Positions 25,667-55,475 are shown, counted from the first letter of the stretch. The stretch: DNA of 64,000 bases from a virus (IMGVR_UViG_3300042275_000327:64001-128000); one strand, 5' to 3'. Made by a program: numbers and translations. The notes: generated by a model not told the origin, from the sequence alone.

Positions 25667-26107
25667 TTATTTTTTTCCTGTTGATCCAAAACCTCCAGAT
25701 CCTCTCTCAGTTTCTTCAAGGGATTCTACCTCAACAAAAGCAGTTTCCTGTGTGTATGTTCTGCAGATAACTAACTGAGCAACTCTATCACCAACATCAA
25801 CATAAAAAGGTTTGTCAGAGGAATTAAAAAGAATTACTCCTATCTCCCCACGATAATCACAGTCGAGAGTCCCAGGACTGTTCAGAACCATTATTCCTTT
25901 TTTAAGAGCCAATCCAGACCTAGATCTAATCTGCCCTTCATATCCTTCTGGAATCTTCACATGAAGACCAGTCTTCACAAGAACAGCTTTTCCTGGACTG
26001 ATCTTATGGACATTATTACTTCTGAGATCAATTCCAGAGGAACCAGAAGTCTCTGGTTTCAACTCAAATTTCTGACTTGTACTGTCAAAATAATACTTTA
26101 CTTCCAT
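25667..26107 (-). CDS. dut: Trimeric dUTPase
   Basis: GIDL, RSRSGLA, GTLDCDYRGE, RVAQL, RGSGGFGSTG. Confidence 0.95.
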   Translation of the reverse strand: MEVKYYFDSTSQKFELKPETSGSSGIDLRSNNVHKISPGKAVLVKTGLHVKIPEGYEGQIRSRSGLALKKGIMVLNSPGTLDCDYRGEIGVILFNSSDKPFYVDVGDRVAQLVICRTYTQETAFVEVESLEETERGSGGFGSTGKK

Positions 26108-26119
26108 CTCTATCTTCTC

Positions 26120-28624
26120 CTATTCTTTTACTTCTTTTCCAAATCCCCAGACTTCTCCAAGCTCTGGATCTGAAATTTCTAATTCAAATTCCATATGAAC
26201 ACCTTCATACTCTTCATACTGTCTTTGGAATATATCTAATATTGTTTTTACCATAAAGCTTCTTTCATCCTTATGTATATAAAATCCCACAGCATCATGA
26301 ATCATTCCAAAGATTCTAGATTTCCAATTATTCTTCTTTACTAACTCATGAAACTCTCTCATTCCTCTCATGATTGCAACTGACTCAAAATTTTGAACAG
26401 GACTATTTTTACTTATATTCTGATCTTCTGAAATCTCTTTTCTATCAGTATCTTTTCCAATATAAGTGAGTCTAGGAAGAAGTCTCCTAGCACCAAATGG
26501 TGATCTTATCATTCCATATTTCTTAGCTGTCTCATGACATTTATCATGCCATTCTAAGAGCTTTGGATATTTCTTAAAGAAGGTATTTCTAATGTATTCT
26601 GCTGCTTCTAAGAATGGATCATCCGAATTTGTATCTAGATTCATCTCTTTTAAAAAATTTAAACAAAAATCTAAATCCCATTCTGCTCTCAATTTATCAT
26701 TAGCAAATGACCATGCAGATCCACCAAAAAGAAAACCAAAATTTACATTTTTTGCTATTCCTCTCTGAGTCTTGTATGGTTCCTGTTTCTTTACTTCTAG
26801 AAATTGTTCAATAGTCCAATCCTGATGAAAAATAGCAATAGCAGTCATCGAGTGAACATCACCACCATACTTTGTAAAAGCATCTTTCAAATTCTGATCA
26901 CCAGAAAGAACAGCAGCAATCCTAAGCTGAAAACCTGCAAAATCACCTTCTGACAAATAATATTTTCCTTGTTCTGGTGCTACAAATATTTTTCTATATT
27001 CTTTTGAAAATTCTGTTTTCTTTGGAACTTGCTGAAGATTGGGAGATTTACATTTATTCCTATGAGATTGTGCAAGCATTACACTGTAAGTTGGATGAAT
27101 GCTATTGGTACTCTTGTTTCTATATTCCCAATAAGCAGAATTATTTTGTTCCTCTCCAATAAAGGTGTTTATCTGAGTCGTAAGAGATCGATAACCAATT
27201 AACTTATCAACAACTGAATATCCTAATTTCTTCCATTTCAGAAGAACATCTTCATTTGTTAGATAATATCCATCTTTAGACCTTAGACCAAGATCAGGAA
27301 GTTTTAGATCGTTCTCTAGTGCCAATCCCAGATCTTTTGCTGAGGACAAATTAACAGGGACTCCCATTTCATCATGTATCTCTCTTGTTAGATCTTCCAA
27401 CTCCTTATCTTTCTTAATCTTCATTTCTTTCAAAAGATCCCAATTGATCACAACCCCATTCAGTTCTATATCAACATAAAGATTCAGATTTGGAACAACT
27501 TCTTTGAAATAATATGAATATAACTGAGGATCCAAAGAAAGTTTTTCTATTTGTTTTTTATATGCTTGATAACAGATTATAGCATCTTTTGTTGCATATT
27601 CAGACAGGATGCTGATTGGAATCTGGGAATAGTTTACCAATTTTGGATGTTTCACCTTATACTTTTGAAGTTCAATCTCATGACCTCCATAATAAGTATA
27701 CATCCAACCATGAGCACTCAATGCATTAGACGCTGTCTCATTCAGACAATGACCAGCACTGAGAGTATCAAAGTCTACCTTAACATTAGTAACACCAAGA
27801 TTTCTCAGGAACTTACAGTCAAATTTTAAATTTGCTCCAATCTGATATTTTCCCTTCAGGAACTCATTTAAGATTTTCAAATCTATCTTGGAAAAATCAA
27901 AATAATATCCTGTGATACCATCAAAAGACATAGTCATACAAATTATTTTATCTTTAAAATAAAAGAATCCACTAGTCTCTAGATCCCATGCTACCTCAGT
28001 AACTTTATCTTTCATCTCTAAAAGAAATTCATTAGGATCTTCTATGATCTCAACTTTTAAAGAAGGAATTCTTATTTTTTCTATATTAAAATCATAAGCT
28101 TTTCTTATTTGTTTAAAAAAGAAAAAACTATAGAAGTTATCAAGAAATCTCTTTTCTTCAAAAGATGCAAACTTGTAAATATCATCCACAGGAAATACAT
28201 AGCTCTTAGTATCTGGATAATAAAAATATGTATCTACATAATCATATGGATAAAAAGCAGAAGCATTGAATGTAGTCTCTAATGTAAATGTATAAATGGA
28301 TCTTCCCAAACAGATAATCTTTGATCCATTAGGAATATACTTTTTATAATCCAGAGAATAACTGTACATGAACTTTGTAACATTCTTTGTTAAATCTTTC
28401 TCTCTTGGTTTAAACTTAAAAGAATATAATAAAGCAAATTGAGGAGCATCATATTTGAATACCTTCTGAAGAGCATTATGGATAAAGCTTACTTGTCTCT
28501 TATTTGTACTATCTGTAACAAAATATAATTCTGGATTTTCATCTGTATAGATAAAGGGATCTTTTATGATATCATTCTGTCTGTTCAATGGGACAGATGT
28601 ATCTACTTTCTTGAAAAAACTCAC
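26120..28624 (-). CDS. polA: Family A DNA polymerase with 3'-5' exonuclease and N-terminal UDG-like region
   Basis: Exo WDLETSG, NLKFD, YATKDA; PNLQQVP, motif A DFAGFQLR, motif B R..AK..NFG, motif C IHD. Confidence 0.92.
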   Translation of the reverse strand: MSFFKKVDTSVPLNRQNDIIKDPFIYTDENPELYFVTDSTNKRQVSFIHNALQKVFKYDAPQFALLYSFKFKPREKDLTKNVTKFMYSYSLDYKKYIPNGSKIICLGRSIYTFTLETTFNASAFYPYDYVDTYFYYPDTKSYVFPVDDIYKFASFEEKRFLDNFYSFFFFKQIRKAYDFNIEKIRIPSLKVEIIEDPNEFLLEMKDKVTEVAWDLETSGFFYFKDKIICMTMSFDGITGYYFDFSKIDLKILNEFLKGKYQIGANLKFDCKFLRNLGVTNVKVDFDTLSAGHCLNETASNALSAHGWMYTYYGGHEIELQKYKVKHPKLVNYSQIPISILSEYATKDAIICYQAYKKQIEKLSLDPQLYSYYFKEVVPNLNLYVDIELNGVVINWDLLKEMKIKKDKELEDLTREIHDEMGVPVNLSSAKDLGLALENDLKLPDLGLRSKDGYYLTNEDVLLKWKKLGYSVVDKLIGYRSLTTQINTFIGEEQNNSAYWEYRNKSTNSIHPTYSVMLAQSHRNKCKSPNLQQVPKKTEFSKEYRKIFVAPEQGKYYLSEGDFAGFQLRIAAVLSGDQNLKDAFTKYGGDVHSMTAIAIFHQDWTIEQFLEVKKQEPYKTQRGIAKNVNFGFLFGGSAWSFANDKLRAEWDLDFCLNFLKEMNLDTNSDDPFLEAAEYIRNTFFKKYPKLLEWHDKCHETAKKYGMIRSPFGARRLLPRLTYIGKDTDRKEISEDQNISKNSPVQNFESVAIMRGMREFHELVKKNNWKSRIFGMIHDAVGFYIHKDERSFMVKTILDIFQRQYEEYEGVHMEFELEISDPELGEVWGFGKEVKE

Positions 28625-41349: not shown

Positions 41350-43494
41350 ATGTTTATCAAAAATGTATATATGAAGAATTTTGGAAATGTCCAAGAACAA
41401 AGACTAGACTTCACTGAAGGATTGACTCTCTTCAGTGGAAATAATGGAGAAGGAAAGAGTACTATTCTTCGATGTCTTACTCTTCTTTTATTCAATCAGA
41501 CAACAGGAAAACTCTCTGATTATATAAGATGGGGAACTGATGGATTTGAAATCTCTACTGAATTGACTCATAAGGGACAAGATCTAAAGATCTCTTTTTC
41601 TTATTCAGAAAAGTCTTCTAACAGAGAAGTCAGTGTCCTGAATACATCTGATAAGTATCAGAATTCTGCAGCTTTGGTATATTTGGATGAGCTTTTTGAC
41701 TCTAAGAGAGCTCTCTCTTCTATTGTCTCTTTTGAGAATGAGATTGATCTAATTACAACTTCTCCTTCTGAGAGAAGAGAATACCTAAAAAGAATTTATG
41801 ATCTGAATTTCAAGAACGAATTGAATCAAATCATTTCAGAAAAGAACTCCTCAGAGAAAGAAGTCCAGAAACTTAGTGGGGAGATCTCAGCTTTAGAGTC
41901 AATGACTTTTGAAAGACTTATGCCAGACAGACTTCCATTTTCTAAAGAGGTATATGATCAGAAGCTTTCAAATCTTGAATCAGTTCAGTCTCTAATTTCT
42001 AGTCTCAAACGACAGAAAGAGGATGAAGAATCAAATAAGAAGAAAGTAGAGACTCTTGAATATGATATCTATAAATTAGATAAGAAAATTGAAACACAAA
42101 AAGAAAACATCAGTAACTCTGAAAAGCAAATCATAGATACCAAGAAAAAAGATTCAGAAATTGTTCTTGATATTCCTGCTATAGAAGAAGTCTTTAATGA
42201 AGAAAAAGAAAATCTTCTGAGTGACAAAGAAGTTCTAAAAAGTAAGATAGATTCTTTAAAATCAAAGTTAAGTAATCTTGAAGAACCCAGCTTGGATCTT
42301 GAGTCTCTAGATGTTTCAGGAACTAGAGAAGAAGTTTACAATTTTCAGTATCAGATCAATGATCTTGAGAAACAGATAAAGACATTTGAATCAGGTAAGT
42401 GTCCTACTTGTGGTCATGAAGTAGATAAGTCTTTTTTAGACAACTCTACTAAGAGATTAGAAAATCTAAGGGATTTATGGACAAACAAGAAAAAAGAATT
42501 AGAAGAGAAAGAAGAGCTAAGGTCTTCATATCAAGAATCTCTAAAAGATTATGAAAAAAGGAAGAGAGAGCTAGAATCACAAATAAAAGATTCTATTTCA
42601 ACTCTAGCTTCAATTGAAAAAGATTGTTTACATATTGAAGAAAAGAAGCAGTCAAAGATCAATTTGGAGAAAGCTAACTTTGAACATCTCAAGTCAGTAA
42701 ATCAACAAAAAATTAAAGAAGAAGAGAATAAAATTGTCTCTTATAATGAAGTAATGAATTCCTCTATTGAAGATAGAGACAGACTCTCAGAGGATCTTCA
42801 GAGCTTACAGGAGAAACTCTCATCTTTAAGTAATATAACTACTCAACTAGAAGAACAAAACTCTCTAGAAGTCTCTCTGAGAACTGATATAAAGATGTAT
42901 GATGGTGTTGTATCTTCTAATGAAGAAAAGAAAAAGTTAAATGAGATTCAAAGTAAGAAGGAAGATGAAAGAGATGAGTCTTTAGTAGAAAAGAAAAAAG
43001 AACTTTTACATTCTCAAGAAGATGTCTCTTTAGCTGAATTTTCTTATAAGATTTTATCTAAGGAATTTCCTTCTTTCGTTATTTCTAGGATGATTAGTTC
43101 TCTTACTTTCTATGTGAATGAATTTCTTTCTAAGGTGTATCCTAACTATAATATTGAGATCGTAGAAAGTAAGAATTCATTAAGAGTATTGTATGGACCA
43201 AATAGATCTGATGTGAAGCTAGCTTCTGGGTTTGAACAACAGATCTTCTCTTTTGCTTGGAAATATGCTCTTGGCAAGATTCAAAATTATGGAATTCTAA
43301 TTCTAGATGAGGTCGACTCAGCTGCTTCTGATGAGAATTCAGAAAAGTTCTATTCAACTCTTGCTAAAATGGATAATTGTTTTAAACAAATTTTTGTTGT
43401 TACTCATAAACAAGAAATCAAAGACCTTTTGGCAAATGATTATGATGCTTCAATATATGAGGTTACAAAAGGAAATTATGAAAAGGTAGTGTAG
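41350..43494 (+). CDS. SbcC/Rad50/gp46-like SMC ATPase
   Basis: GNNGEGKST, coiled coil with CPTC zinc hook, ASGFE signature, LDE, VTH. Confidence 0.9.
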   Translation: MFIKNVYMKNFGNVQEQRLDFTEGLTLFSGNNGEGKSTILRCLTLLLFNQTTGKLSDYIRWGTDGFEISTELTHKGQDLKISFSYSEKSSNREVSVLNTSDKYQNSAALVYLDELFDSKRALSSIVSFENEIDLITTSPSERREYLKRIYDLNFKNELNQIISEKNSSEKEVQKLSGEISALESMTFERLMPDRLPFSKEVYDQKLSNLESVQSLISSLKRQKEDEESNKKKVETLEYDIYKLDKKIETQKENISNSEKQIIDTKKKDSEIVLDIPAIEEVFNEEKENLLSDKEVLKSKIDSLKSKLSNLEEPSLDLESLDVSGTREEVYNFQYQINDLEKQIKTFESGKCPTCGHEVDKSFLDNSTKRLENLRDLWTNKKKELEEKEELRSSYQESLKDYEKRKRELESQIKDSISTLASIEKDCLHIEEKKQSKINLEKANFEHLKSVNQQKIKEEENKIVSYNEVMNSSIEDRDRLSEDLQSLQEKLSSLSNITTQLEEQNSLEVSLRTDIKMYDGVVSSNEEKKKLNEIQSKKEDERDESLVEKKKELLHSQEDVSLAEFSYKILSKEFPSFVISRMISSLTFYVNEFLSKVYPNYNIEIVESKNSLRVLYGPNRSDVKLASGFEQQIFSFAWKYALGKIQNYGILILDEVDSAASDENSEKFYSTLAKMDNCFKQIFVVTHKQEIKDLLANDYDASIYEVTKGNYEKVV

Positions 43495-46484: not shown

Positions 46485-46535
46485 AAAGAGAATTCTTGTA
46501 TATACTATAAATATGAAAAGACAAGAATTCTCTTT
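46485..46535 (+). promoter_or_regulatory. 15-bp perfect inverted repeat with TATACT in the loop
   Basis: aaagagaattcttgt/acaagaattctcttt flanking TATACT (46501-46506), upstream of the DNA-modification cluster. Confidence 0.65.
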
Positions 46536-46564
46536 TAGTTTTGTTTGTGGTAGGAGAAAATAAA

Positions 46565-47596
46565 GTGTATAGTTTTAATGGAATAAATGAAGCTTTGGTA
46601 GTGATGTCTAAAGAGGTTTTAGAAAAAGGAGTGTTCAGAAAGACTCCAGGATTTCAGGCAGAAAACTCTAATAGATGTTTGGAGCTTCCTTTTCCTATAA
46701 TCATTGAAATGAATCATCCTGAGGCAAGGAAAGTAAAAATTCCAGAAAGAAAATGGAATTCTACTTTACCATATGCTGAATCTTTGTGGTTAGCATTAGG
46801 ATGGAATAGTTTGGATGATCTTCCTGGAAAATATGTAAAGAGTCTTTATAACTTTTCTGATGATGGACATTACTGGAGGGCAGGTTATGGTCCCAGGATT
46901 CGTCACTATAATGGTCTCACTGAGCAGTATTCAATTGGAGTATTTGGAAATTTCTATGATTGGGTACCAGAAGTAGATCAATTGAAGTATGTGTATGAAA
47001 CATTAAAGAAAGATCCAAATTCTAGACAAGCTCTTATTACTATTCATGATCCCATGAAAGATTCCAAAATAGATCTTGTTACTAAAGATCAGCCTTGTAC
47101 TAGATCTCTTCATTTTATGGTTGTAGAAGATAAGCTAAATCTTTATACCACAATGAGATCAAACGATCTCCTTTGGGGATTTTCCGCTGTGAACAATTTC
47201 AATTTTACTTTTATGCTAGAATATATGAGTAAACTTTTGAATATTCCTATGGGAAAGTATTATCATATTGCTCATAATTTTCATATCTATGAGGATTTCA
47301 TAGAAAAGGTTAGAAAAATTTCAGAGTTTTCAATTGAAGAAGCAATAGAAATGGATTCAAGACAATTTAAAGAAGTTGTTCCATTCAAAGAAGGTTATAC
47401 ATTAAAAGATTTTGATAAAGATATTATCAAAGTGTTTACAACACAAGATATGTTCTTTATAAGACCAGAGAGCATAGAAAAGAGATATCAGAGTTTTCTT
47501 GATGAAGGAAGAGATAAATTCTTCAATGATTGGCTAACTGTATTTTATAAATATCACATAAGAAAGAGGAACAAAAATGAACAAAAATCTAACTAG
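46565..47596 (+). CDS. Thymidylate-synthase-fold enzyme, probably dUMP hydroxymethylase
   Basis: YGPR, SRQA, PCT, MRSND..WG....N (Asn implies dUMP specificity), FHIY; start revised to GTG 46565 after AGGAG. Confidence 0.75.
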   Translation: MYSFNGINEALVVMSKEVLEKGVFRKTPGFQAENSNRCLELPFPIIIEMNHPEARKVKIPERKWNSTLPYAESLWLALGWNSLDDLPGKYVKSLYNFSDDGHYWRAGYGPRIRHYNGLTEQYSIGVFGNFYDWVPEVDQLKYVYETLKKDPNSRQALITIHDPMKDSKIDLVTKDQPCTRSLHFMVVEDKLNLYTTMRSNDLLWGFSAVNNFNFTFMLEYMSKLLNIPMGKYYHIAHNFHIYEDFIEKVRKISEFSIEEAIEMDSRQFKEVVPFKEGYTLKDFDKDIIKVFTTQDMFFIRPESIEKRYQSFLDEGRDKFFNDWLTVFYKYHIRKRNKNEQKSN

Positions 47597-48137
47597 ACAA
47601 ATTCTTCATCATCGTAAGATGTTGAACGTTCAAAGAATGTCAGGATCTCCAAAGATCAGAAGTTATAATTTAGCTGAGCATAGCTATTTTGTAGCTACAA
47701 TGTTTGAAGAATTTGCAAGAGAAGAACAACTAGAATATACTACAGATACATTGTATGTAATTCTCAGGCATGATATTATGGAGGTATTCACAGCAGATCT
47801 TCCTTATCCTGTTAAGAATTTTAATGAGAAAACAAAAGAGGCTTGGGAACTTATTGAAAGAGAAGTCTATGAAGGTGGTAAAGAAAGGTTTATCACTATG
47901 ATGACTGATGAAGAGATAAAATCTAGACTTACTGAAAAACAATTCATCTTGATGAAATCTTGTGATATTCTGGATTTGTATCTTTTCTGCTTAGAAGAAA
48001 GGCAGCTAGGGAATCATTCTCAACCTATCCTTAAGATTATCAATAATTGTGAAGATATTTTAAATTATTGGAATGTTCCAAGTATACTGTATGTAATAGA
48101 AGATTTGAAAAAAGGAATACAAGGAGAAGATGAGTGA
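47577..48137 (+). CDS. HD-domain 5'-deoxynucleotidase (YfbR-like)
   Basis: R...NLAEHS, HD..E..T.D.P.PVK, K.CD. Confidence 0.8.
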   Translation: MNKNLTRQILHHRKMLNVQRMSGSPKIRSYNLAEHSYFVATMFEEFAREEQLEYTTDTLYVILRHDIMEVFTADLPYPVKNFNEKTKEAWELIEREVYEGGKERFITMMTDEEIKSRLTEKQFILMKSCDILDLYLFCLEERQLGNHSQPILKIINNCEDILNYWNVPSILYVIEDLKKGIQGEDE

Positions 48138-48532
48138 GAGCAATTACAACAGAAGAATTTGAAAAATATATTGATGAAATCTTCAGTGAAATGAAGAAGA
48201 TACTTATAGAGAAAAATAGGTCTTACGGTTCTGCTTCATTTGAAGGAGACAATCTTGCTATACTAGGAAATTATTTCAGACTCACAGACAAGATCAATAG
48301 ATACAAAAAGTTGATGCAAAACTATATTTCTTCAGGTGCTCTGGGATCAGAAATTGGAGAGACTGTTCAAGATACAGTGAGAGACATCTTTGGCTATGCA
48401 ACTATTGGATTGACAATTCTTGAATTGATGAATGAGCAAGAGGAATCTTTTCCTGGAGAAAATCTTAGGAAAGAAGGATTTGATCTAGAATATTATCCTT
48501 TTGGGTATGATAGTAAAAAGGATTGTGAATGA
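48134..48532 (+). CDS. DUF1599/nucleotide-modification-associated domain protein
   Basis: KNRSYG, RLTDKINR, E...DT..D..GY. Confidence 0.75.
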   Translation: MRAITTEEFEKYIDEIFSEMKKILIEKNRSYGSASFEGDNLAILGNYFRLTDKINRYKKLMQNYISSGALGSEIGETVQDTVRDIFGYATIGLTILELMNEQEESFPGENLRKEGFDLEYYPFGYDSKKDCE

Positions 48533-49092
48533 GTCATGTAGCAGTTTCAGGTGTTCATGGAATTGGAAAAACTACTCTAGTCAAGGAATTGACTAGAGTA
48601 GACAATAGTTTATTCTTAGAAGAACAAGCAAGAAAACTTCTTGACACAAAATATTATTTCAAGGATGTAAATTCTAATTTATCTGTATTCATGGATTTTC
48701 AGAATGAAGTCCTAGATAATCAGATTGAGCTTTTGTTGAGATTCAAGAATGATAGATTTGTTACTGATAGAACACCAATAGATTCTCTTGCTTATGTAAC
48801 AGAAAGACTAGGAGCAGAGAGATATCTGTACTCTTATTTCTATGAGTCCTATATAAAAAGAATAAAAGATATTCTATCGGAAATTGATTTTGATACTATC
48901 TATTTTTTGAATTTTGATGTGGAGTATGAATGCTTCTGGAAGAACAAAGAAGATAGCCAAAGAAATTTGTCTCCTATGTATATGTTTTCATTGAATGAGA
49001 TCATGATGAACTCCTATGTTAATACCTTCAATATTCCAATTAAGATTATTGAATCAAATCTCTCATTAGAAGAAAGGAAGAAATATCTATGA
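48529..49092 (+). CDS. P-loop nucleotide kinase (AAA_28/dNMP-kinase-like)
   Basis: GVHGIGKTT, E.AR, DRTPID..AY. Confidence 0.75.
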   Translation: MSHVAVSGVHGIGKTTLVKELTRVDNSLFLEEQARKLLDTKYYFKDVNSNLSVFMDFQNEVLDNQIELLLRFKNDRFVTDRTPIDSLAYVTERLGAERYLYSYFYESYIKRIKDILSEIDFDTIYFLNFDVEYECFWKNKEDSQRNLSPMYMFSLNEIMMNSYVNTFNIPIKIIESNLSLEERKKYL

Positions 49093-50504
49093 AAAAAATT
49101 GCATATGTAGTTCATGCTGGTGACACTAATGGTGGATTCCCACAGCATTCTGAAATAATAATTAAGACTTTAAAAGAGCTAGGAAATATTGTAGATTTTT
49201 ATTATCTCCAGTATAGATCTAGTCCTTCAAAGAGAATAGAAGAAAAGATAGAGATTCTTAATTCCACAAATGGAGTTGGAAATAAGGATGGAAAGACTAT
49301 TCTTTTTGATAAAGGTGAAGGAACCGGATTATGGTTTGAACCAGAGTCAGGATGGGTTCATAATGGATTTTGCTATAAAGAAAAAGAACAAAAAATTCAA
49401 TTCAGAAATAAAATGGAAGAATATGATGGAGTTTTTTGGCATACACCATTTTGGTTTAAACAAAATTCAACATTAAAAGATACAGATTGGCCAATCATGC
49501 TTGATGCAAAAAATCCAGTTCAAGTGGGTATGGTTCATGATGCTAACCTTAGATCAAATTGTGCTTGGATTCATTTTATTGAAGAGAAATTTGATTATAT
49601 TCTTACAGTTCATCCAGCATCATATAATTCTGCTTCTGTTCTTAGAACTCCGAGAGTTATGATTTTTAATCCACAGGATCTATCTATGATAGATAGAAAT
49701 AGATCTGGATATGATTCTTTCAATGATCCAACTCTATTTATTCTTCAAAACTGGAAATCCTCAAAGAGAGGTGCAGATTTTATACGTGCTATTCCTTATT
49801 TGAATGACTCAATAAAGTCATATATTGGAGGAGGTGGTATAGAATGGCGTTATATGAATTCTGAAGAAAAATGTAAAAGTATCTACTATTCTTCTGAATT
49901 ATCAGATCCAAATCGTTCTGATTTATGGAATAAGAGAATAATTGATAACGCTAAAACTCATCCTGGATTTGAATACCTTGGTTGGATTACAGAGAAAACA
50001 AGAGATGAGATCCTTTCTAGGACTTCTTTCTTTATTGATCCTGCATGGTATAAAATAAATTATACTCTTGGAGCTCATTTTTCGAGAACTCTTATAGAAG
50101 CAATGAAATTTGGTGTTGTCCCAATTGCAAGAGGACTTGGGCTTTCTAATAATGATGAAGGAAAAGGAGATGTTTTTAATTCAGGAATTAATTATATTAA
50201 TGTACCTTCTAATTCTTCTCCCGAAGAATTTGCCAATATAATAGAAGATTCATTAAAAATGTCAGAGAATGAGTACAATAAAATTGTAAATAACAACTAT
50301 GAAATTCTCAAGAATTTTGATAGATTTAATGTTGCAAAAGAATATCTAAAATTACTAGATGGAGAACCCTGTGGATGGTACAACAAATTTGAAGTAGGAA
50401 ATCCTACCTATGATTTTATTCAGAAGGCAAATAGTCAATGGTATGGAACTGGGGATAAGAGAACTTTTTTCTTTAAGGAAAAGAGAAAGAAAGTTTTATT
50501 TTAG
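49089..50504 (+). CDS. GT-B (GT4-like) glycosyltransferase
   Basis: N-terminal GG, K..KR, FSRTLIEAMKFGVVPI. Confidence 0.7.
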   Translation: MKKIAYVVHAGDTNGGFPQHSEIIIKTLKELGNIVDFYYLQYRSSPSKRIEEKIEILNSTNGVGNKDGKTILFDKGEGTGLWFEPESGWVHNGFCYKEKEQKIQFRNKMEEYDGVFWHTPFWFKQNSTLKDTDWPIMLDAKNPVQVGMVHDANLRSNCAWIHFIEEKFDYILTVHPASYNSASVLRTPRVMIFNPQDLSMIDRNRSGYDSFNDPTLFILQNWKSSKRGADFIRAIPYLNDSIKSYIGGGGIEWRYMNSEEKCKSIYYSSELSDPNRSDLWNKRIIDNAKTHPGFEYLGWITEKTRDEILSRTSFFIDPAWYKINYTLGAHFSRTLIEAMKFGVVPIARGLGLSNNDEGKGDVFNSGINYINVPSNSSPEEFANIIEDSLKMSENEYNKIVNNNYEILKNFDRFNVAKEYLKLLDGEPCGWYNKFEVGNPTYDFIQKANSQWYGTGDKRTFFFKEKRKKVLF

Positions 50505-50512
50505 AGGAATAG

Positions 50513-51574
50513 ATGAACAAAAGAATAGTCTGTGATATTGATGATACAATATGTTTTACAACTAATAGAGATTGGGAAAATGCAACACCAATACCTGCTG
50601 TAATAGAAAAAATTAATTTTCTCTATGAAAATGGTTGGGAGATAATTCTTCAAACTGCTCGTGGTCAGGTTTCTTGTAATGGAGATTCAAAGAAGGCTGA
50701 AGAAAAATATGGTGATATTATCAGAACTTGGTTAAAAGAGCATAATGTAAAATATCATATTCTTTCTTTTCAAAAATATCTTGCTTCTTATTACATAGAT
50801 GATAAATCATTAAGACCAGATGAATTTTCAAAACTAAAGATAGAGCTACTAAAAGAGGGAAGATCTGGAGCTCGAGTTGAAAGACATGGAGATAGAGTAT
50901 ATAAAACCTTTATAGAAAGAGATAAAGCTCTTCTGGAAGCTTCTTGGTATAACCAGGCAGAGGGATTAGTTCCTATCCCAAAATTATTTAGTGTGATTGA
51001 TAAAACAATATGTATTGAATATATTGAAAATGTAGAATTATCATATCCTAGTATTAGTTTTATTAAGGAGTGCTTAGATACATTTTCTATGACTGACTCT
51101 TCTGATACAGAAAAATTTTCTTCCTATATAGACAGAATCAATAGGGATCATTCTAATTCTTTACAATCTATTTTTAATAAAAATAAATTGGAAGATCTAT
51201 TTCAGATATCCAAAGAAGATATTCTGATACTAGATAAAAATTTAAGTTTTTGTCATGGTGATTTTTCTATTGAAAATATTCTTATTACTCCTGCTAGAGA
51301 CTATGTTCTCATAGATCCAATTTATAAGAAAAATATTTATTCAAGTTGGCTTCTTGATGCATCTAAGATGCTTTTATCATTAAGAAAATATGGAAGGAAT
51401 ACATTGTATTCAAATCTATTTAATTTTATATCTTTAAAGTCAGGATTAAGTAGAAAAACTATTCTATTTTTGGAATTTTGTCACTGGATAAGAATTTATA
51501 AATATGCAACTCTTGAAGAAAAAGATATGATAACTAAAAATATTTTGGAGGTTTTTAATGCTTTCAAAGATTAA
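50513..51574 (+). CDS. HAD phosphatase fused to APH/choline-kinase-like phosphotransferase
   Basis: DIDDT, TARG, YIDDK; G.SGA, HGDFSIENI, LIDP. Confidence 0.8.
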   Translation: MNKRIVCDIDDTICFTTNRDWENATPIPAVIEKINFLYENGWEIILQTARGQVSCNGDSKKAEEKYGDIIRTWLKEHNVKYHILSFQKYLASYYIDDKSLRPDEFSKLKIELLKEGRSGARVERHGDRVYKTFIERDKALLEASWYNQAEGLVPIPKLFSVIDKTICIEYIENVELSYPSISFIKECLDTFSMTDSSDTEKFSSYIDRINRDHSNSLQSIFNKNKLEDLFQISKEDILILDKNLSFCHGDFSIENILITPARDYVLIDPIYKKNIYSSWLLDASKMLLSLRKYGRNTLYSNLFNFISLKSGLSRKTILFLEFCHWIRIYKYATLEEKDMITKNILEVFNAFKD

Positions 51575-52061
51575 AGAACTTAAAAAAGAAGGAAAGAAGA
51601 TAGGGTTCACCTGCTCTTCTTTTGATCTATTACATGCAGGTCATGTCTTAATGCTGGCAGAATCTAAAGCTAATTGTGATTTTCTAGTTGTTGGATTATT
51701 GTCTGACCCAACAAATGATAGACCATTAACAAAAAATAAACCAATCCAATCCTTGATGGAAAGATGGATTCAACTACAATCTGTAAGTTATGTAGATCTT
51801 ATAATCCCATTTGATTCTGAGAAAGATCTTTATGATTTACTCCTTCTTCTTCAACCAGATATACGATTTGTTGGAGAGGAGTATAAAGGAAAAAACTTTA
51901 CAGGAAGTGATTTACAGAAAATTGAAATCTTTTTTAATTGTAGAAAGCATTCTTTTAGTTCTTCAGACTTAAAGAAAAGAATAAAAGAAACAGATATCAA
52001 AGAAGTTTCAGAAGAAGAAAAAGTAGAGGAATTAGAAAAATGCAATATAAAGTTGCAATAA
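51558..52061 (+). CDS. Cytidylyltransferase (TagD/RfaE-like)
   Basis: FDLLHAGH, NKPIQ..ER, R.H.FSSS. Confidence 0.88.
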   Translation: MLSKIKELKKEGKKIGFTCSSFDLLHAGHVLMLAESKANCDFLVVGLLSDPTNDRPLTKNKPIQSLMERWIQLQSVSYVDLIIPFDSEKDLYDLLLLLQPDIRFVGEEYKGKNFTGSDLQKIEIFFNCRKHSFSSSDLKKRIKETDIKEVSEEEKVEELEKCNIKLQ

Positions 52062-52930
52062 GATCCTACAATAGATCAAATATTCTAAAAGAATGTACAT
52101 TATCATTATTAAAAAAATATAATTTTGAAGAATCCAAAATTTTCATTTTTGTAGGTGATATGAATCAACTGGAGGAATATCAAAAAGTAATAAAAGGATC
52201 ATATAATTTTGTTGTTGGAAAAGTTGGAATAGCAAATATTGATAACTTCATAACAGATTATTTTGATGAAGGTGAAAGAGTTATATGCTTAGATGATGAT
52301 ATCACAGGATTATTTGAAGTAGAAAAATATAAAGATCCAAAATCAAAAAGAGAAATTGTATCCATAGAAGAATATTTTGAGTATGGCTTTAATTCTTTAG
52401 ATAAATTAGGATTATACTGCTTTTCAATTAATGTTATAAGTAACTATCTTTTTCTTTCTAATTATCCTTTTGTTACTATTGGACCTCAAATGGTTCCTGG
52501 TTGTTGCTATGGAATAATAAATAGAAAGGATATAAGAATTACTTATAACCATTTGGATGATTCACAGAGAACTGCTCTTATACTTGAAAAAGACCAAAGT
52601 ATTTTGAAATTTACAAGAGCTACTTTAAAAGTGGATTATGGAAAGCTATCTGGTGGATTACAAAGCTCAGATATGAGAGGATCTAATTCTTTAGATAGAA
52701 AAAATAAGACATTAAGAATATGTGAAGAATTTAAGAAAGAAGAATTTGGAAAATTCTTTAAAGAACCAAAATTTGATGATAAATATAATCTATATCATAT
52801 AAGTCTTAATTCAATGTCATTTTTTAAGAAAAATTATGGTTGGAAAAGTCAGAAGTATTTTGAGTATTTTGAAAATATAGAAGAGGAAAGAGGGATTGAA
52901 AAACAAACAAAAAGATGTTCTCTATTCTAA
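52040..52930 (+). CDS. GT-A glycosyltransferase of the TET/JBP-associated (GREB1/J-glucosyltransferase-like) type
   Basis: VAIRSYNR, LDDDI, DD.QR, GGLQ. Confidence 0.65.
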   Translation: MQYKVAIRSYNRSNILKECTLSLLKKYNFEESKIFIFVGDMNQLEEYQKVIKGSYNFVVGKVGIANIDNFITDYFDEGERVICLDDDITGLFEVEKYKDPKSKREIVSIEEYFEYGFNSLDKLGLYCFSINVISNYLFLSNYPFVTIGPQMVPGCCYGIINRKDIRITYNHLDDSQRTALILEKDQSILKFTRATLKVDYGKLSGGLQSSDMRGSNSLDRKNKTLRICEEFKKEEFGKFFKEPKFDDKYNLYHISLNSMSFFKKNYGWKSQKYFEYFENIEEERGIEKQTKRCSLF

Positions 52931-53948
52931 TGTATCTGAAGAAAATATAAAATCAAGAGCTCCTATTTTTGATGAAAAGAATCTTTCTCTCCTATTTCAT
53001 TGGATAGAAGAAAGATATAAAATTCATAAAAAGAAAGATGTTCTAAAATTGGATTCTCCTTGGACAGATGATAAAATTCTTCAAGATTATAGATTTACAA
53101 ATGTTAGAAGAGAACACGACAGAGAAACAAAATGGTACATAGAACATATTGCTAAAAATAGCTCTTTGTCTATTGAAGACAAGATTTACAATACTTTTTT
53201 ATTCAGAGCATGGAATAAATCAAAAACTATGGAGATCCTTGGAGGACCTTGGAACTATCCTGATTTTATGGATAAGGAAAGGTATAGATCTGTAGTAGAA
53301 AGATACTCTACAGATCATCCTGAGTATGTCTGGTATACTGCAGCATTCAATTGTGGTGGATTGAAATCATCACAAAAGTTTCCAGATGGTGAAGGATATG
53401 CAAGAGCTCATAAAGAAGAAAAAGCAAAAATGGAAAAGGATTGGGAACAGTGTATTCCAATTCGTATGTTTCATATTCCTCCCCAGATGGAAAAGAAAGA
53501 TATTGTAAATAGAATTCTTAATTCTAAAGACCAACCTGAGTGTTTCAACATCATTCAGGAAGTCAGAGGATTCTCAACATTTCTTGCATATCAGGTTTTT
53601 GTAGATCTTACATATATAGAAGATTTTCCTTTTAGTGAGAATGAATTTACAGTATGTGGTCCAGGATGTAGAAGAGGAATTGATGAAGTAGTAAAAGACA
53701 GAAATGGATTATCTTATGAAGAGATTATCTTTTGGATTAGAGATAATCAAAAAAGTCTTTTTGAAAGATTTAATATAGATCCTATAGAATTATTTGATGA
53801 TCTTACTATATATGATAGATGTCTGAATGTAATGAGTCTAGAATCCTCATTTTGTGAAATATCAAAATATCTAAAAGCATATTATGAAACAGGAAGACCA
53901 AGGGTTAGATATAGAAGCTCTGAAGATTCTACTAAAAAATTGTTCTAA
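52896..53948 (+). CDS. 5-hmdU DNA kinase-like (aGPT-Pplase family) protein
   Basis: PWTDDKIL..YRFTNVRREHDR, F.AYQV..DL.Y, GPG..RGI, E..FCE..KY. Confidence 0.8.
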   Translation: MKNKQKDVLYSNVSEENIKSRAPIFDEKNLSLLFHWIEERYKIHKKKDVLKLDSPWTDDKILQDYRFTNVRREHDRETKWYIEHIAKNSSLSIEDKIYNTFLFRAWNKSKTMEILGGPWNYPDFMDKERYRSVVERYSTDHPEYVWYTAAFNCGGLKSSQKFPDGEGYARAHKEEKAKMEKDWEQCIPIRMFHIPPQMEKKDIVNRILNSKDQPECFNIIQEVRGFSTFLAYQVFVDLTYIEDFPFSENEFTVCGPGCRRGIDEVVKDRNGLSYEEIIFWIRDNQKSLFERFNIDPIELFDDLTIYDRCLNVMSLESSFCEISKYLKAYYETGRPRVRYRSSEDSTKKLF

Positions 53949-53967
53949 AAAGGAGTATACTCAATAT

Positions 53968-54492
53968 ATGAATATATTTTATTTACATGAAAATCCAACT
54001 CTATCAGCTAAAGCAATGACGAATAAACATATTGTCAAGATGATTATTGAGGCAGCTCAATTGCTGTCTACAGCTCATAGAGTTCTTGATGGTTATCCAG
54101 TCAAAAAAGGAAGATGGACAACCTATCTTCTTGAAGACAAACAAAGAAATGATACTCTCTATAAGTCTACTCATTATAATCATCCATGTGCAGTCTGGGT
54201 AAGAGAGTCCTTTGAGAATTATTACTGGCTATACAAGCATTTTCTTGCTCTATGTCAGGAATATAGAAATCGATATGGAAAGATTCATGAATCAGAAAAC
54301 AAGTTAGGACACATACTTAGAAGATATCCTGAGTCTATGAAAAAGAAAAAGTTTACTCCTCCAGCTCTTGCTATGCCAGAAGAATACAAGGTTGAGGGAG
54401 ATCCTGTTCAGTCATATAGAAATTATTATGAAGCAGAGAAGCTTAAGAATCCAGAAGACATTCAAAGATATAAAGAGGTATTAGGATTATGA
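53968..54492 (+). CDS. Pyrimidine-dimer DNA glycosylase/DenV-related family protein
   Basis: MNIFYL, KHIVKM..E.AQLLS, H.NHPC..W, EY..RYGK.H, AMP..YK; start revised to 53968. Confidence 0.7.
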   Translation: MNIFYLHENPTLSAKAMTNKHIVKMIIEAAQLLSTAHRVLDGYPVKKGRWTTYLLEDKQRNDTLYKSTHYNHPCAVWVRESFENYYWLYKHFLALCQEYRNRYGKIHESENKLGHILRRYPESMKKKKFTPPALAMPEEYKVEGDPVQSYRNYYEAEKLKNPEDIQRYKEVLGL

Positions 54493-55475
54493 TCTATATT
54501 CTAGGAGATACACATATACGAAAAGAAGAGCCTTATTATTCTGCTGTGAATAATGTGTTTAAAGAGATCTATGAAGAGTGTAACGAAGGAGATACTATTA
54601 TTCAATTAGGAGATTTCTTTCACACATACAAGCCATTTCCAAAAGAATATTCTCTTGCCTTCTATTGGATAGAAAAGCTTTCTTCTAAAAATGTAAAATT
54701 GTATATAATGGCAGGAAATAATGCTCATGAATATCATCATCTTCAGAAAACATATGCTATTGATCCTTTAGATAGTTTTGACAATGTGATTCTTATCAAA
54801 GATATTGAGAAGCTTACTGTAGAGAATATCTCATTCTTAGTACTTCCTTGGATTCCTGAAAGTAGAGTGAAATCTTTGAAGCTTGAAGATGTTTGTGTGA
54901 TGTTAAAGAATTATATCAACAATCTTGAGTCTTCTGATATTGACTATTTTCTATATCATTATGAGGATGAGACTGTCTTTATGGGAGGAGAAAATAGAGG
55001 TATCGATTTTTCTTTTGTAGAGTCCATGATTCCTGGAATCAAGAGAATTGGAGGACATATCCATCTTCAAAGTGACAATTATCTAGGAACTCCTTTTCAG
55101 ACAAGATTCGATGAATTAGGACAAGTAGGAAGATATTATACTGTTGAAGATAATTATTTGAAATCTCACGAACTCAAAAACTATGTGAAACATCTTAAGA
55201 TAGACTTTGACTCTGATTGTCCAAAGCTAGAATTTAAAGAGCAGAAGATTGTTGTAAATATTTCTGATGCTCCATCAGTAGATTCTGTCTATGAAAAATT
55301 TAAGGACAGGCATATCTTCATCAATGATATAAAACTGAGGTTTTCAGAAAATAGAACTGAAACTCTTGCTGAAGGAATGGACTCAGAATCCTCCATAAAA
55401 GAGCTGTTGAATGAATATATAACAATCAACAATGTAGACAGAAAGACATCTTCTTATCTTTTAAACCTTTTTTAG
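54489..55475 (+). CDS. SbcD/Mre11/gp47-like nuclease
   Basis: GDTH, LGDFFH, GN..HE, GHIH, GTP. Confidence 0.85.
   Translation: MIYILGDTHIRKEEPYYSAVNNVFKEIYEECNEGDTIIQLGDFFHTYKPFPKEYSLAFYWIEKLSSKNVKLYIMAGNNAHEYHHLQKTYAIDPLDSFDNVILIKDIEKLTVENISFLVLPWIPESRVKSLKLEDVCVMLKNYINNLESSDIDYFLYHYEDETVFMGGENRGIDFSFVESMIPGIKRIGGHIHLQSDNYLGTPFQTRFDELGQVGRYYTVEDNYLKSHELKNYVKHLKIDFDSDCPKLEFKEQKIVVNISDAPSVDSVYEKFKDRHIFINDIKLRFSENRTETLAEGMDSESSIKELLNEYITINNVDRKTSSYLLNLF

Follow-up and report, generated by a model that had tools for sequence, protein, structure and literature searches.

Which base would be made by a phage that carries a thymidylate synthase (TS)-like gene, genes for two predicted glycosyltransferases (GTs) and a sugar-activation module in a single run? 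This question is raised by ten open reading frames (ORFs) in a 64,000-nucleotide stretch of DNA (the window), which covers bases 64001-128000 of the 147,626-bp IMG/VR virus record IMGVR_UViG_3300042275_000327. The ORFs are co-oriented on the plus strand, overlap or abut, and occupy positions 46541/46565-54492 of the window. They are numbered in gene order from ORF1 (TS-fold) to ORF10 (DenV-like) (Table 1). The original prediction described them as a thymine hypermodification cluster that starts with a dUMP hydroxymethylase and a kinase acting on 5-hydroxymethyldeoxyuridine (hmdU) in DNA. All folds named there were borne out, whereas the function label of one gene, ORF9, had to be corrected. 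We consider it probable (roughly 0.6) that the operon makes hmdU before replication and then glycosylates it on the DNA. This would most likely represent a thymine version of a DNA-sugar pathway that has so far been shown only for cytosine.

The TS-fold enzyme and the predicted hmdU core

For E. coli ThyA it was described that Asn at position 177 confers specificity for uracil and Asp specificity for cytosine, that an acidic residue takes the place of L143 in enzymes that form no methyl group, where water access yields a hydroxymethyl product, and that D169N is the mark of flavin-dependent 5-hydroxy-dCMP synthases (PMC13326640). ORF1 was aligned with RB69 td, RB69 gp48, T4 gp42, SPO1 gp29, ViI thyA, the M6 TS homolog and phiW-14 gp230, all taken from phage records. 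Its catalytic Cys lies in a DQPCT motif and aligns with the position of E. coli ThyA C146 in all references. At L143/D169/N177 ORF1 carries Asp/Asp/Asn together with a one-residue loop insertion before N177, and the identical pattern, including the insertion, was found in ViI thyA, SPO1 gp29, M6 and phiW-14 gp230. The signatures of the other references were D/D/D (T4 gp42), E/N/D (RB69 gp48) and L/D/N (RB69 td). Among related metagenomic loci, position 177 is likewise Asn in L030 and L032, and it is Asp in L012 and L029, as in T4 gp42 and RB69 gp48.

A small tree was computed as the TS-family phylogeny that had been proposed as a check. In a maximum-likelihood tree of 12 sequences ORF1 formed a clade with the enzymes of L030 and L032 (support 98/98), the nearest rows of which were SPO1, ViI and M6, apart from the T4 gp42 clade and with long branches and a deeper fork without resolution. 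The best PDB sequence match of ORF1 was the CMP hydroxymethylase MilA (7e-20), true thymidylate synthases reaching only 1e-8, and its best phage relatives were hmdU phages of the SPO1-like, ViI-like and M6-like groups. The scores of the NCBIfam TS equivalogs were all far under the cut-off. ORF1 is the sole TS-fold gene in the record, and no TET or JBP protein was found there. Based on the D/D/N signature, the tree neighbours, the single TS-fold gene and the lack of TET/JBP, ORF1 looks like a dUMP hydroxymethylase, in agreement with the Asn at the specificity position and the thymine (hmdU)-based chemistry that had been predicted. An assignment of ORF1 as a 5-hydroxylase was rejected, since Asp169 is kept.

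The genes that follow ORF1 were compared with those of the related loci. Orthologs of ORF2, a predicted HD-domain nucleotidase, lie directly after the TS gene in L030 (48% identity) and L032 (43%), and orthologs of the small protein ORF3 hold the equivalent position in both (37% and 38%, respectively). The predicted DUF1599 identity of ORF3 was upheld in part: the match is weak (E 0.054) and the L030 ortholog carries the same weak flag. ORF4 was without a match to the kinase families PF18748 and PF18747, a tblastn search against phages returned nothing, and a PDB sequence search gave P-loop noise only. Its ortholog in L032 (34%) lies beside a true HMUD2 base kinase. A role of ORF4 as 5-hmdU DNA kinase was rejected because of this coexistence; ORF4 is predicted to be a nucleotide kinase rather than a DNA base kinase, and presumably acts on hmdUMP.

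In L030, which stems from a stromatolite metagenome, the gene order is TS, HD, DUF1599 (weak), dNK, TAGT, HAD-APH, nucleotidyltransferase (NTase), a GT8-like protein of 330 amino acids (aa), PF18723 and Metallophos, and the proteins are 28-64% identical to those of the window. L034 and L035 share the order GT8-like, HAD-APH, NTase, PF18723. Since the gene order recurs in L030 and the sub-block of GT, HAD-APH, NTase and PF18723 genes recurs in L034 and L035, we regard the run as more than a chance grouping. L032 (Logan contig of SRR30965922, 5146-8991) encodes the closest homolog of the PF18723 protein (59% identity) within the same frame of genes (TS 41%; the HD, small protein and dNK values are given above). 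The slot between dNK and PF18723 is filled there with an HMUD2 kinase, GATase_6, an unknown protein of 292 aa, an acetyltransferase and an ADDT transferase, a cassette of the classical kind that looks like an uncharacterised amino-acid-type thymidine hypermodification. Judged by gene order, the frame TS-HD-DUF1599-kinase...PF18723 is constant and the decoration cassette, either sugar or kinase/amino-acid-transferase, is exchanged, which shows phages trading the decoration module on a fixed hmdU core. The swap thus argues that ORF4 is a nucleotide kinase and not a base kinase, that the TS clade of ORF1 feeds hmdU chemistry, and that PF18723 is a member of the hmdU core regardless of the decoration.

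ORF9 had been taken for the 5-hmdU DNA kinase that starts hypermodification in ViI, M6 and phiW-14, and this was the label that did not hold. The protein has no Walker A motif, and its homolog in ViI is Vi01_130c (orf00160/gp160; 35-40% identity). A scan of the ViI proteins assigned gp67 to PF18748, gp243 to PF18747, gp247 to PF18724 (amino-acid:DNA transferase, AADT) and gp160 to PF18723. Previously, gp160 was listed as a second 'aG/PT-PPlase'-type DNA-glycosylase-like protein and not as a kinase (Lee et al. 2018, PMC5889632). In reconstitutions from 2021, the kinase and a clade-2 transferase were enough and the gp160-type protein was dispensable in vitro, for M6 (gp55) as well as for ViI (PMC8989533), which leaves the gp160 family without an assigned function. 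ORF9, which is orthologous to ViI gp160 and has no P-loop, is hence not a kinase. Across the 147.6-kb record (86% complete), PF18748, PF18747 and PF18724 gave no match even at E <= 1; with no kinase of the first two families, there is no enzyme in the record to make the phospho-hmdU intermediate.

To describe ORF9 further, an AlphaFold2 (AF2) model was built from 28 homologs (mean predicted local distance difference test, pLDDT, 92) and was found to be all-helical. In VIA-align comparisons the top match was the 5-phosphomethyldeoxyuridine (5-PmdU) glycinyltransferase gp46 of PaMx11 (Z 9.7, 216 residues), together with the queuine-salvage glycosylase QNG1 (Z 9.7) and helix-hairpin-helix DNA glycosylases (Z 7-8.3); unrelated chains gave Z <= 2.5, and the Foldseek E-values were weak (0.17). 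The model thus points to a helix-hairpin-helix DNA-glycosylase-like fold. The family motif FPFSENEF...GPGC, which includes E248, E250 and C258, is invariant. PDB searches with the single sequence and with a profile returned nothing. As the ORF9 alignment gave no significant hhalign match to ViI gp247, used as a single sequence, ORF9 is linked to the amino-acid:DNA transferases by fold and not by sequence. The PF18723 gene ends the cluster in L030, L032, L034 and L035, and more than 1000 stand-alone PF18723 homologs were found. PF18723 genes were also seen by themselves in siphovirus-like contigs of ~50 kb, as at L033:9001-10101, with no TS gene within 9 kb. The neighbours there encode a dCMP deaminase and PolA, and the protein cluster of the L033 member holds 103 sequences. 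The role of PF18723 may therefore not be limited to known hypermodification clusters.

The predicted sugar-donor module and the candidate DNA glycosyltransferases

ORF6 consists of a HAD part (residues ~1-115) and a kinase part (residues ~120-353). The HAD part matched the PDB entries 1xpj (5.8e-13) and 9iqw (annotated 'capsule biosynthesis protein', 1.7e-11) and is 40% identical to the RB69 ORF at 27759-28064, which lies beside the RB69 arabinosylation genes; no match to it was obtained in T4, ViI or SPO1. In RB69, DLP3 and HY126 a HAD enzyme strips the distal phosphate of arabinose-1,5-bisphosphate (PMC13326640). The C-terminal motif CHGDFSIENIL...LIDP corresponds to the HGDxxxxN...D motif of APH/choline-kinase-like kinases. 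Matches of the kinase part to APH (0.014), Choline_kinase (0.084) and RIO were weak, and some homologs have APH or RIO1 matches themselves. More than 200 full-length HAD-APH homologs were obtained, and in every context examined the HAD-APH gene is followed by the same nucleotidyltransferase gene, the product of which is 59-74% identical to ORF7. The best curated profile for ORF7 was rfaE_dom_II, which represents the heptose-1-phosphate adenylyltransferase part of HldE (2e-23, with a score that stays far below the cut-off of the model), followed by TagD (8e-15). Its PDB sequence matches were ethanolamine-phosphate cytidylyltransferase (ECT, 1e-11), TagD (5e-10) and 5x9q (1e-8).

It was recently described that a bifunctional HAD-like and APH-like enzyme, a cytidylyltransferase-fold enzyme and a GT-B, all encoded by contig 53, are essential in E. 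coli for the formation of heptosyl- and di-heptosyl-5-hydroxymethylcytosine (5hmC) (bioRxiv 10.1101/2023.12.21.572611). ORF6, ORF7 and ORF5 have the domain architecture of this trio, and it is by architecture that they are likened to it. By analogy with this trio, which led to heptosyl- and di-heptosyl-5hmC, we infer that ORF6 and ORF7 make a nucleotide-activated donor through a bisphosphate route to a nucleoside diphosphate (NDP)-heptose. The predicted cooperation of kinase and cytidylyltransferase in making an activated donor was hence retained, but an NDP-sugar, probably heptose, is more likely by this analogy than the NDP-polyol that had been considered as well, and a phospho-hmdU acceptor would lack its enzyme. 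The HAD-APH and NTase pair travels not only with hmdU-type genes; it was also found beside TS genes of the cytosine type (in L012 and L029, with Asp at residue 177) and in a glycan neighbourhood (L014), and therefore appears to be a portable NDP-sugar module. The pair lies beside TS homologs at L012:3008-10811 and L029:4531-9186, in clusters that also contain genes for a DNA methylase, an epimerase and a dCMP deaminase as well as unrelated GT-B genes. L012 and L029 appear to be cytosine-type versions of the cassette.

Two candidate transferases flank the donor genes. For ORF5, the feature and structure neighbours in the ESM Atlas were viral GT4-like clusters and clusters of the T4 DNA alpha-glucosyltransferase (AGT, PF11440); a PDB sequence search returned nothing. 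The related-locus search gave no locus for ORF5 and two weak loci for ORF8. A word-indexed protein search with ORF8 recovered the protein itself and one relative with 86% identity only, and an exhaustive search was used instead, which yielded 1231 homolog clusters. Of the 60 nearest homologs (E 1e-48 to 1e-20 to ORF8), 49 match PF20691, the TET-associated glycosyltransferase family (TAGT). In the family alignment D86 and D87 are invariant and R12, D85 and D174 nearly so; R...DDD...(E/D)D motifs have been described for phage GT-A DNA glycosyltransferases and for the J-glucosyltransferase (JGT) (bioRxiv 10.1101/2023.12.21.572611). The AF2 model of ORF8 (pLDDT 92) has a GT-A fold and matches POMGnT1, GnT-I, TarP and TarS, and the ESM Atlas neighbours are labelled TAGT and GREB1-related. 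The GREB1/JGT-like GT-A assignment made beforehand was thereby confirmed, and ORF8 is a TAGT-family candidate for an hmdU DNA glycosyltransferase. Neither the TAGT protein nor the 330-aa GT8-like protein of L030 gave a BLAST match to ORF8. The best match of ORF8 (E 5e-67) was a metagenomic protein of 988 aa (P0004) with three tandem TAGT-like domains, which may be a fused multi-glycosyltransferase.

Proposed pathway and rival explanations

What was observed are the genes, their families and folds, the residues of the active sites, the synteny and the cassette swap. From these we infer a pathway in which all enzymatic steps are proposals, as are the nature of the sugar and its placement on DNA. 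ORF1 would convert dUMP to hmdUMP, and ORF4 would phosphorylate hmdUMP together with a host NDP kinase. The pools would be biased by the HD nucleotidase, which would remove dTMP or other unwanted deoxynucleoside monophosphates, and by a dUTPase encoded elsewhere in the window. The hmdUTP would then be polymerised into phage DNA in place of dTTP. Starting from a host sugar phosphate, ORF6 and ORF7 would proceed via a sugar-1,x-bisphosphate and a sugar-1-phosphate to an NDP-sugar, most likely NDP-heptose, and ORF5 (GT-B) and ORF8 (TAGT GT-A) would move the sugar or sugars onto the 5-hydroxymethyl oxygen of hmdU in DNA. The two transferases might build a disaccharide, or they might serve two different linkages or sequence contexts. 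ORF9 might flip out hmdU or its derivative, and the classical phospho-hmdU/amino-acid transferase route would stay unused. Mono- or oligo-glycosylated hmdU would result, as a bulkier counterpart of base J in a bacterial virus, and would benefit the phage by shielding its DNA from host nucleases. A more far-reaching proposal is put forward tentatively and is rather doubtful as a whole: that the virion DNA carries a new heptosyl- (or heptosyl-plus-second-sugar) oxymethyl-deoxyuridine, and that PF18723 proteins are enzymes that flip hmdU bases in general and are required in vivo whenever hmdU is decorated after replication, be it with sugar or amino acid. If true, base flipping would be the first role for this family.

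Several points speak against glycosylated hmdU as the product. The phage is uncultured and is known here from contigs, its record is 86% complete, and the part given to the gp160-like protein is conjectural. ORF8 itself was without a TAGT Pfam match at E < 0.01 and without any Pfam match at E <= 5, and BLASTP of ORF5 against the cassette-adjacent GT-B genes of L029 and L012 gave no similarity. ORF5 to ORF7 are tied to the contig 53 enzymes by architecture only, the best PDB matches of ORF7 are alcohol-phosphate cytidylyltransferases (ECT and TagD), and in L014 the donor cassette lies in a pure glycan neighbourhood, which has fucosyl- and methyltransferase genes and lacks a TS gene. Furthermore, no phosphoheptose or arabinose-5-phosphate isomerase (SIS) and no epimerase is encoded in the record. 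Given that contig 53 is likened by architecture and that no isomerase or epimerase is encoded, the sugar identity is the weakest step of the reading, and heptose-7-phosphate is a presumed substrate.

The nature of the donor leads to one rival explanation, in which a phospho-alcohol or polyol activated with cytidine diphosphate (CDP; of the CDP-glycerol, CDP-ribitol or CDP-ethanolamine type) is attached as a phosphodiester, either to hmdU directly or to a first sugar, so that a polyol-phosphate thymidine resembling teichoic acid would arise. The ethanolamine-phosphate and glycerol-3-phosphate cytidylyltransferases among the best PDB matches of ORF7 (1e-11 to 2e-9) would fit, as would the weak likeness of the ORF6 kinase domain to choline/ethanolamine kinases and the phosphate-bearing thymine glycans of SP-15, YerA41 and Carin-5 (PMC12686479). 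However, the profiles favour the heptose-1-phosphate adenylyltransferase domain over TagD, the three-part architecture yielded heptose and not a phospho-alcohol (bioRxiv 10.1101/2023.12.21.572611), the HAD domain of ORF6 matches sugar-bisphosphate phosphatases, and no LicD- or TagF-type phosphotransferase family was obtained in the Pfam scan of the proteins, so that a polyol donor seems unlikely. Equally, the sugar cassette and both glycosyltransferases could decorate virion proteins or host surface polymers, the DNA containing bare hmdU as in SPO1. The HAD-APH and NTase genes of L014 would be compatible with this, and in a published survey the metagenomic GT-A/GT-B matches lay mostly away from base-modification genes. 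Acceptors other than DNA are nevertheless improbable: in the window the cassette has the hydroxymethylase core on one side and the gp160-like gene on the other, exactly where L032 has its DNA kinase/AADT cassette, the family of ORF8 is the DNA glycosyltransferase family TAGT, and the genes overlap within a replication and nucleotide-metabolism module (RecA, SbcC-like, ribonucleotide reductase).

The phospho-hmdU route could also be used in addition to glycosylation, if a kinase and an amino-acid:DNA transferase were encoded in the missing ~14% of the genome or if ORF4 or the APH domain phosphorylated hmdU, with the gp160-like protein transferring the group. The incomplete record leaves room for such genes, which in ViI are dispersed across the genome, and gp46 is the nearest structural neighbour of the gp160-like protein, the invariant Cys of which has Glu residues nearby. 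We nonetheless regard this route as quite unlikely, given that the three ViI-type families are absent from the record as described above, that in L030, L034 and L035 the sugar cassette abuts the gp160-like gene with no kinase or AADT, that the ORF4 ortholog stands beside a real HMUD2 kinase in L032, and that the APH-HAD and NTase pair also occurs with cytosine-type TS genes (L012, L029). Very improbable, finally, is the explanation that ORF1 is an ordinary thymidylate synthase or a dCMP enzyme, in which case no hmdU would be made and the glycosyltransferases would have another acceptor. It is true that the Pfam and NCBIfam names read 'thymidylate synthase' and that telling such enzymes apart generally takes enzymatic assays (PMC5977210), but the equivalog scores are far under the cut-off, the residues aligned with L143, 177 and 169 are Asp, Asn (not Asp) and Asp (not Asn), and the tree sets ORF1 apart from both T4 gp42 and RB69 td.

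Known systems and genomic setting

Glycosylated hmdU as the predicted product was compared with characterised DNA modifications. The closest counterpart by description is contig 53 (Pyle et al., bioRxiv 10.1101/2023.12.21.572611; Cell Rep 2024), which has the same three-part donor/transfer module. There, the acceptor 5hmC is made post-replicatively by a methyltransferase and TET, whereas the window cluster has no TET and a pre-replicative, uracil-type TS homolog, and in addition contains the TAGT GT-A, the HD nucleotidase, the DUF1599-like protein, the nucleotide kinase and the gp160-like protein. With ViI, M6, phiW-14, SP10 and PaMx11 (PMC5889632, PMC8989533) the cluster shares the dUMP hydroxymethylase signature and the gp160-type PF18723 protein, and a post-replicative decoration of hmdU, as in phages of the ViI/M6/phiW-14 type, is proposed for it. 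Unlike these phages, it has no 5-hmdU DNA kinase, no PF18724 protein and none of the pyridoxal phosphate, radical S-adenosylmethionine or flavin adenine dinucleotide tailoring enzymes, which appear to be replaced by the glycosyltransferases and the NDP-sugar module.

The Afh pathway of RB69, DLP3 and HY126, which leads to arabinosyl-5-hydroxycytosine (PMC13326640), likewise combines in one cluster a TS homolog, a nucleotide kinase, GT-Bs, a HAD phosphatase, an APH-like anomeric kinase and a nucleotidyltransferase, and would follow the same logic of a bisphosphate route to an NDP-sugar. Its TS homolog, however, is a flavin-dependent dCMP 5-hydroxylase (E/N/D, in contrast to D/D/N in ORF1), its kinase is fused to a MurU-like nucleotidyltransferase with a separate HAD enzyme, whereas in the window HAD is fused to the kinase and the cytidylyltransferase-fold NTase is separate, and the Afh phages encode an arabinose-5-phosphate isomerase while the window record has no SIS isomerase. 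In base J of kinetoplastids, too, a GT-A enzyme glycosylates hydroxymethyluracil (hmU) in DNA, and phage TAGT-type enzymes are related to JGT (bioRxiv 10.1101/2023.12.21.572611); there, hmU is made on the DNA by JBP dioxygenases and glucose comes from UDP-glucose, as opposed to the nucleotide-level hydroxymethylase, phage-made donor and two transferases predicted here. SP-15, YerA41 and Carin-5 (PMC5977210, PMC12686479) have sugar-bearing thymines and genes beside glycosyltransferases and a nucleotidyltransferase, but their linker is of the dihydroxypentyl type and contains phosphate, SP-15 uses ThyX-type enzymes, the gene sets are different, and no homolog relationship was seen.

In surveys, GT-A/GT-B genes, an 'APH phosphotransferase' and secondary GTs were reported beside TS homologs, and hmU-type pathways were suggested (PMC13229309). 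Our literature search returned no characterised phage with hmdU glycosylated via the hydroxymethylase route, and none in which it is paired with PF18723. The enzyme combination, which had been called unusual, is so in part: the donor trio was already published for 5hmC, but hmdU as acceptor base and the pairing with a gp160-like protein appear to be new. Among the cytosine sugars, glucosyl-hydroxymethylcytosine (hmC), arabinosyl-5-hydroxycytosine and heptosyl-, Kdo- and N-acetylhexosaminyl-hmC have been worked out, whereas for thymine modified via the hydroxymethylase route defined pathways exist only for amino-acid and polyamine decorations. The window cluster, together with L030, L034 and L035, offers a concrete and compact case in which a bacterial virus may carry glycosylated hmdU, and also a handle on the PF18723/gp160 family, which is retained here beside a sugar cassette without any base kinase. 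New DNA glycosyltransferases and a self-contained NDP-sugar module might be of practical use for the enzymatic labelling of hmU, and the modification may help to explain why such phages resist restriction and CRISPR nucleases.

The coordinates are compiled in Table 1. Matches to profiles and PDB entries and sequence motifs agreed with the expected P-loop kinase, GT-B, HAD-kinase fusion and TagD-like cytidylyltransferase; the HD nucleotidase proved to be YfbR-like, and the DenV-like gene and the dUTPase outside the cluster were both recovered.

Table 1. Position, strand and supporting matches of the cluster genes and the dUTPase gene (window coordinates).
Feature	Position	Strand	Evidence
ORF1: TS-fold enzyme, predicted dUMP hydroxymethylase	46565..47596	+	PF00303 1.9e-18
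ORF2: HD-domain YfbR-like 5'-deoxynucleotidase	47577..48137	+	PF12917 9.4e-19; NF003009 7.5e-13
ORF3: small DUF1599/'nucleotide modification associated domain 1'-like protein	48134..48532	+	PF07659 E 0.054; phrog_1485 3e-13
ORF4: P-loop nucleotide kinase (dNK/AAA_28 type)	48529..49092	+	AAA_28 2e-11; dNK 2.6e-8
ORF5: GT-B fold glycosyltransferase, candidate DNA glycosyltransferase	49089..50504	+	Glycos_transf_1 7e-6
ORF6: HAD phosphatase + APH/choline-kinase-like sugar kinase fusion, 353 aa	50513..51574	+	TIGR01689 1.7e-19; kinase motif
ORF7: cytidylyltransferase-fold nucleotidyltransferase	51558..52061	+	PF01467 2.2e-9; rfaE_dom_II 2e-23; TagD 8e-15; phrog_7878 5e-32
ORF8: GT-A fold TAGT/GREB1/JGT-like glycosyltransferase, 296 aa, candidate hmdU DNA glycosyltransferase	52040..52930	+	homologs, AF2 model
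ORF9: PF18723 ('HMUDK_hel') protein, ViI gp160 ortholog, 350 aa	52896..53948	+	PF18723 4.8e-67
ORF10: DenV-like pyrimidine-dimer glycosylase homolog	53968..54492	+	Pyr_excise 2e-10; phrog_624 8e-59
dUTPase, outside the cluster	25667..26107	-	PF00692 4e-31, match at window 25676-26059 (record 89676-90059)

For two genes the start codon was reconsidered. The longest ORF1 begins with TTG at 46541; the alternative GTG at 46565 sits 7 nucleotides (nt) after an AGGAGA ribosome-binding site and is for this reason probably the start. The longest ORF10 begins with the first ATG at 53884 and would share its first 65 nt with the PF18723 gene. As the family matches start at Met29 (53968; phrog_624 from residue 29), 20 nt past the upstream stop, the start at 53968 is likelier. 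No counterpart of the DenV-like gene was found at the cluster end in L030, L034 and L035, and ORF10 is probably adjacent to the pathway yet outside of it.

The record has a G+C content of ~32%, and the identity of its major capsid protein to those of cultured phages reaches only ~27%. When the cluster was compared with 50,697 phage records by Megablast, no match was obtained, and PADLOC gave none for ORF2, ORF3, ORF9 and ORF10. Identical pieces of the cluster were present in Logan contigs from three additional wastewater runs, which belong to other studies. These runs were examined as contigs, which show the presence of the phage and nothing on expression or base modification. Because identical pieces recur in wastewater runs of several studies, the phage is a real, recurrent, uncultured wastewater virus.

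The cluster sits in a plus-strand replication and nucleotide-metabolism module, with genes for RecA, an SbcC-like ATPase and a class II-type ribonucleotide reductase upstream and an SbcD-like gene downstream. The latter has no Pfam match itself, and its L030 ortholog matches Metallophos. In the window the genes for the SbcC-like ATPase (41350-43494) and the SbcD-like protein (54489-55475) are 11 kb apart, with the ribonucleotide reductase gene and the modification cluster between them, whereas L030 has them near each other, downstream of the cluster. Relative to the nuclease genes, the block of reductase and modification genes thus seems to be positioned differently in the lineage of the window phage.

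A consensus scan for promoters and terminators gave 73 promoter-like sites against 61 expected, which is uninformative in AT-rich DNA. The ribonucleotide reductase gene, which stops at 46472, is separated from the start of the predicted hydroxymethylase gene by 92 nt. This gap contains a perfect 15-bp inverted repeat (AAAGAGAATTCTTGT ... ACAAGAATTCTCTTT, window 46485-46535), the arms of which enclose an AT-rich loop of 21 nt, and a T-rich run comes after it. The scan missed this repeat because its loop exceeds 8 nt; it could be a terminator or a regulatory hairpin.

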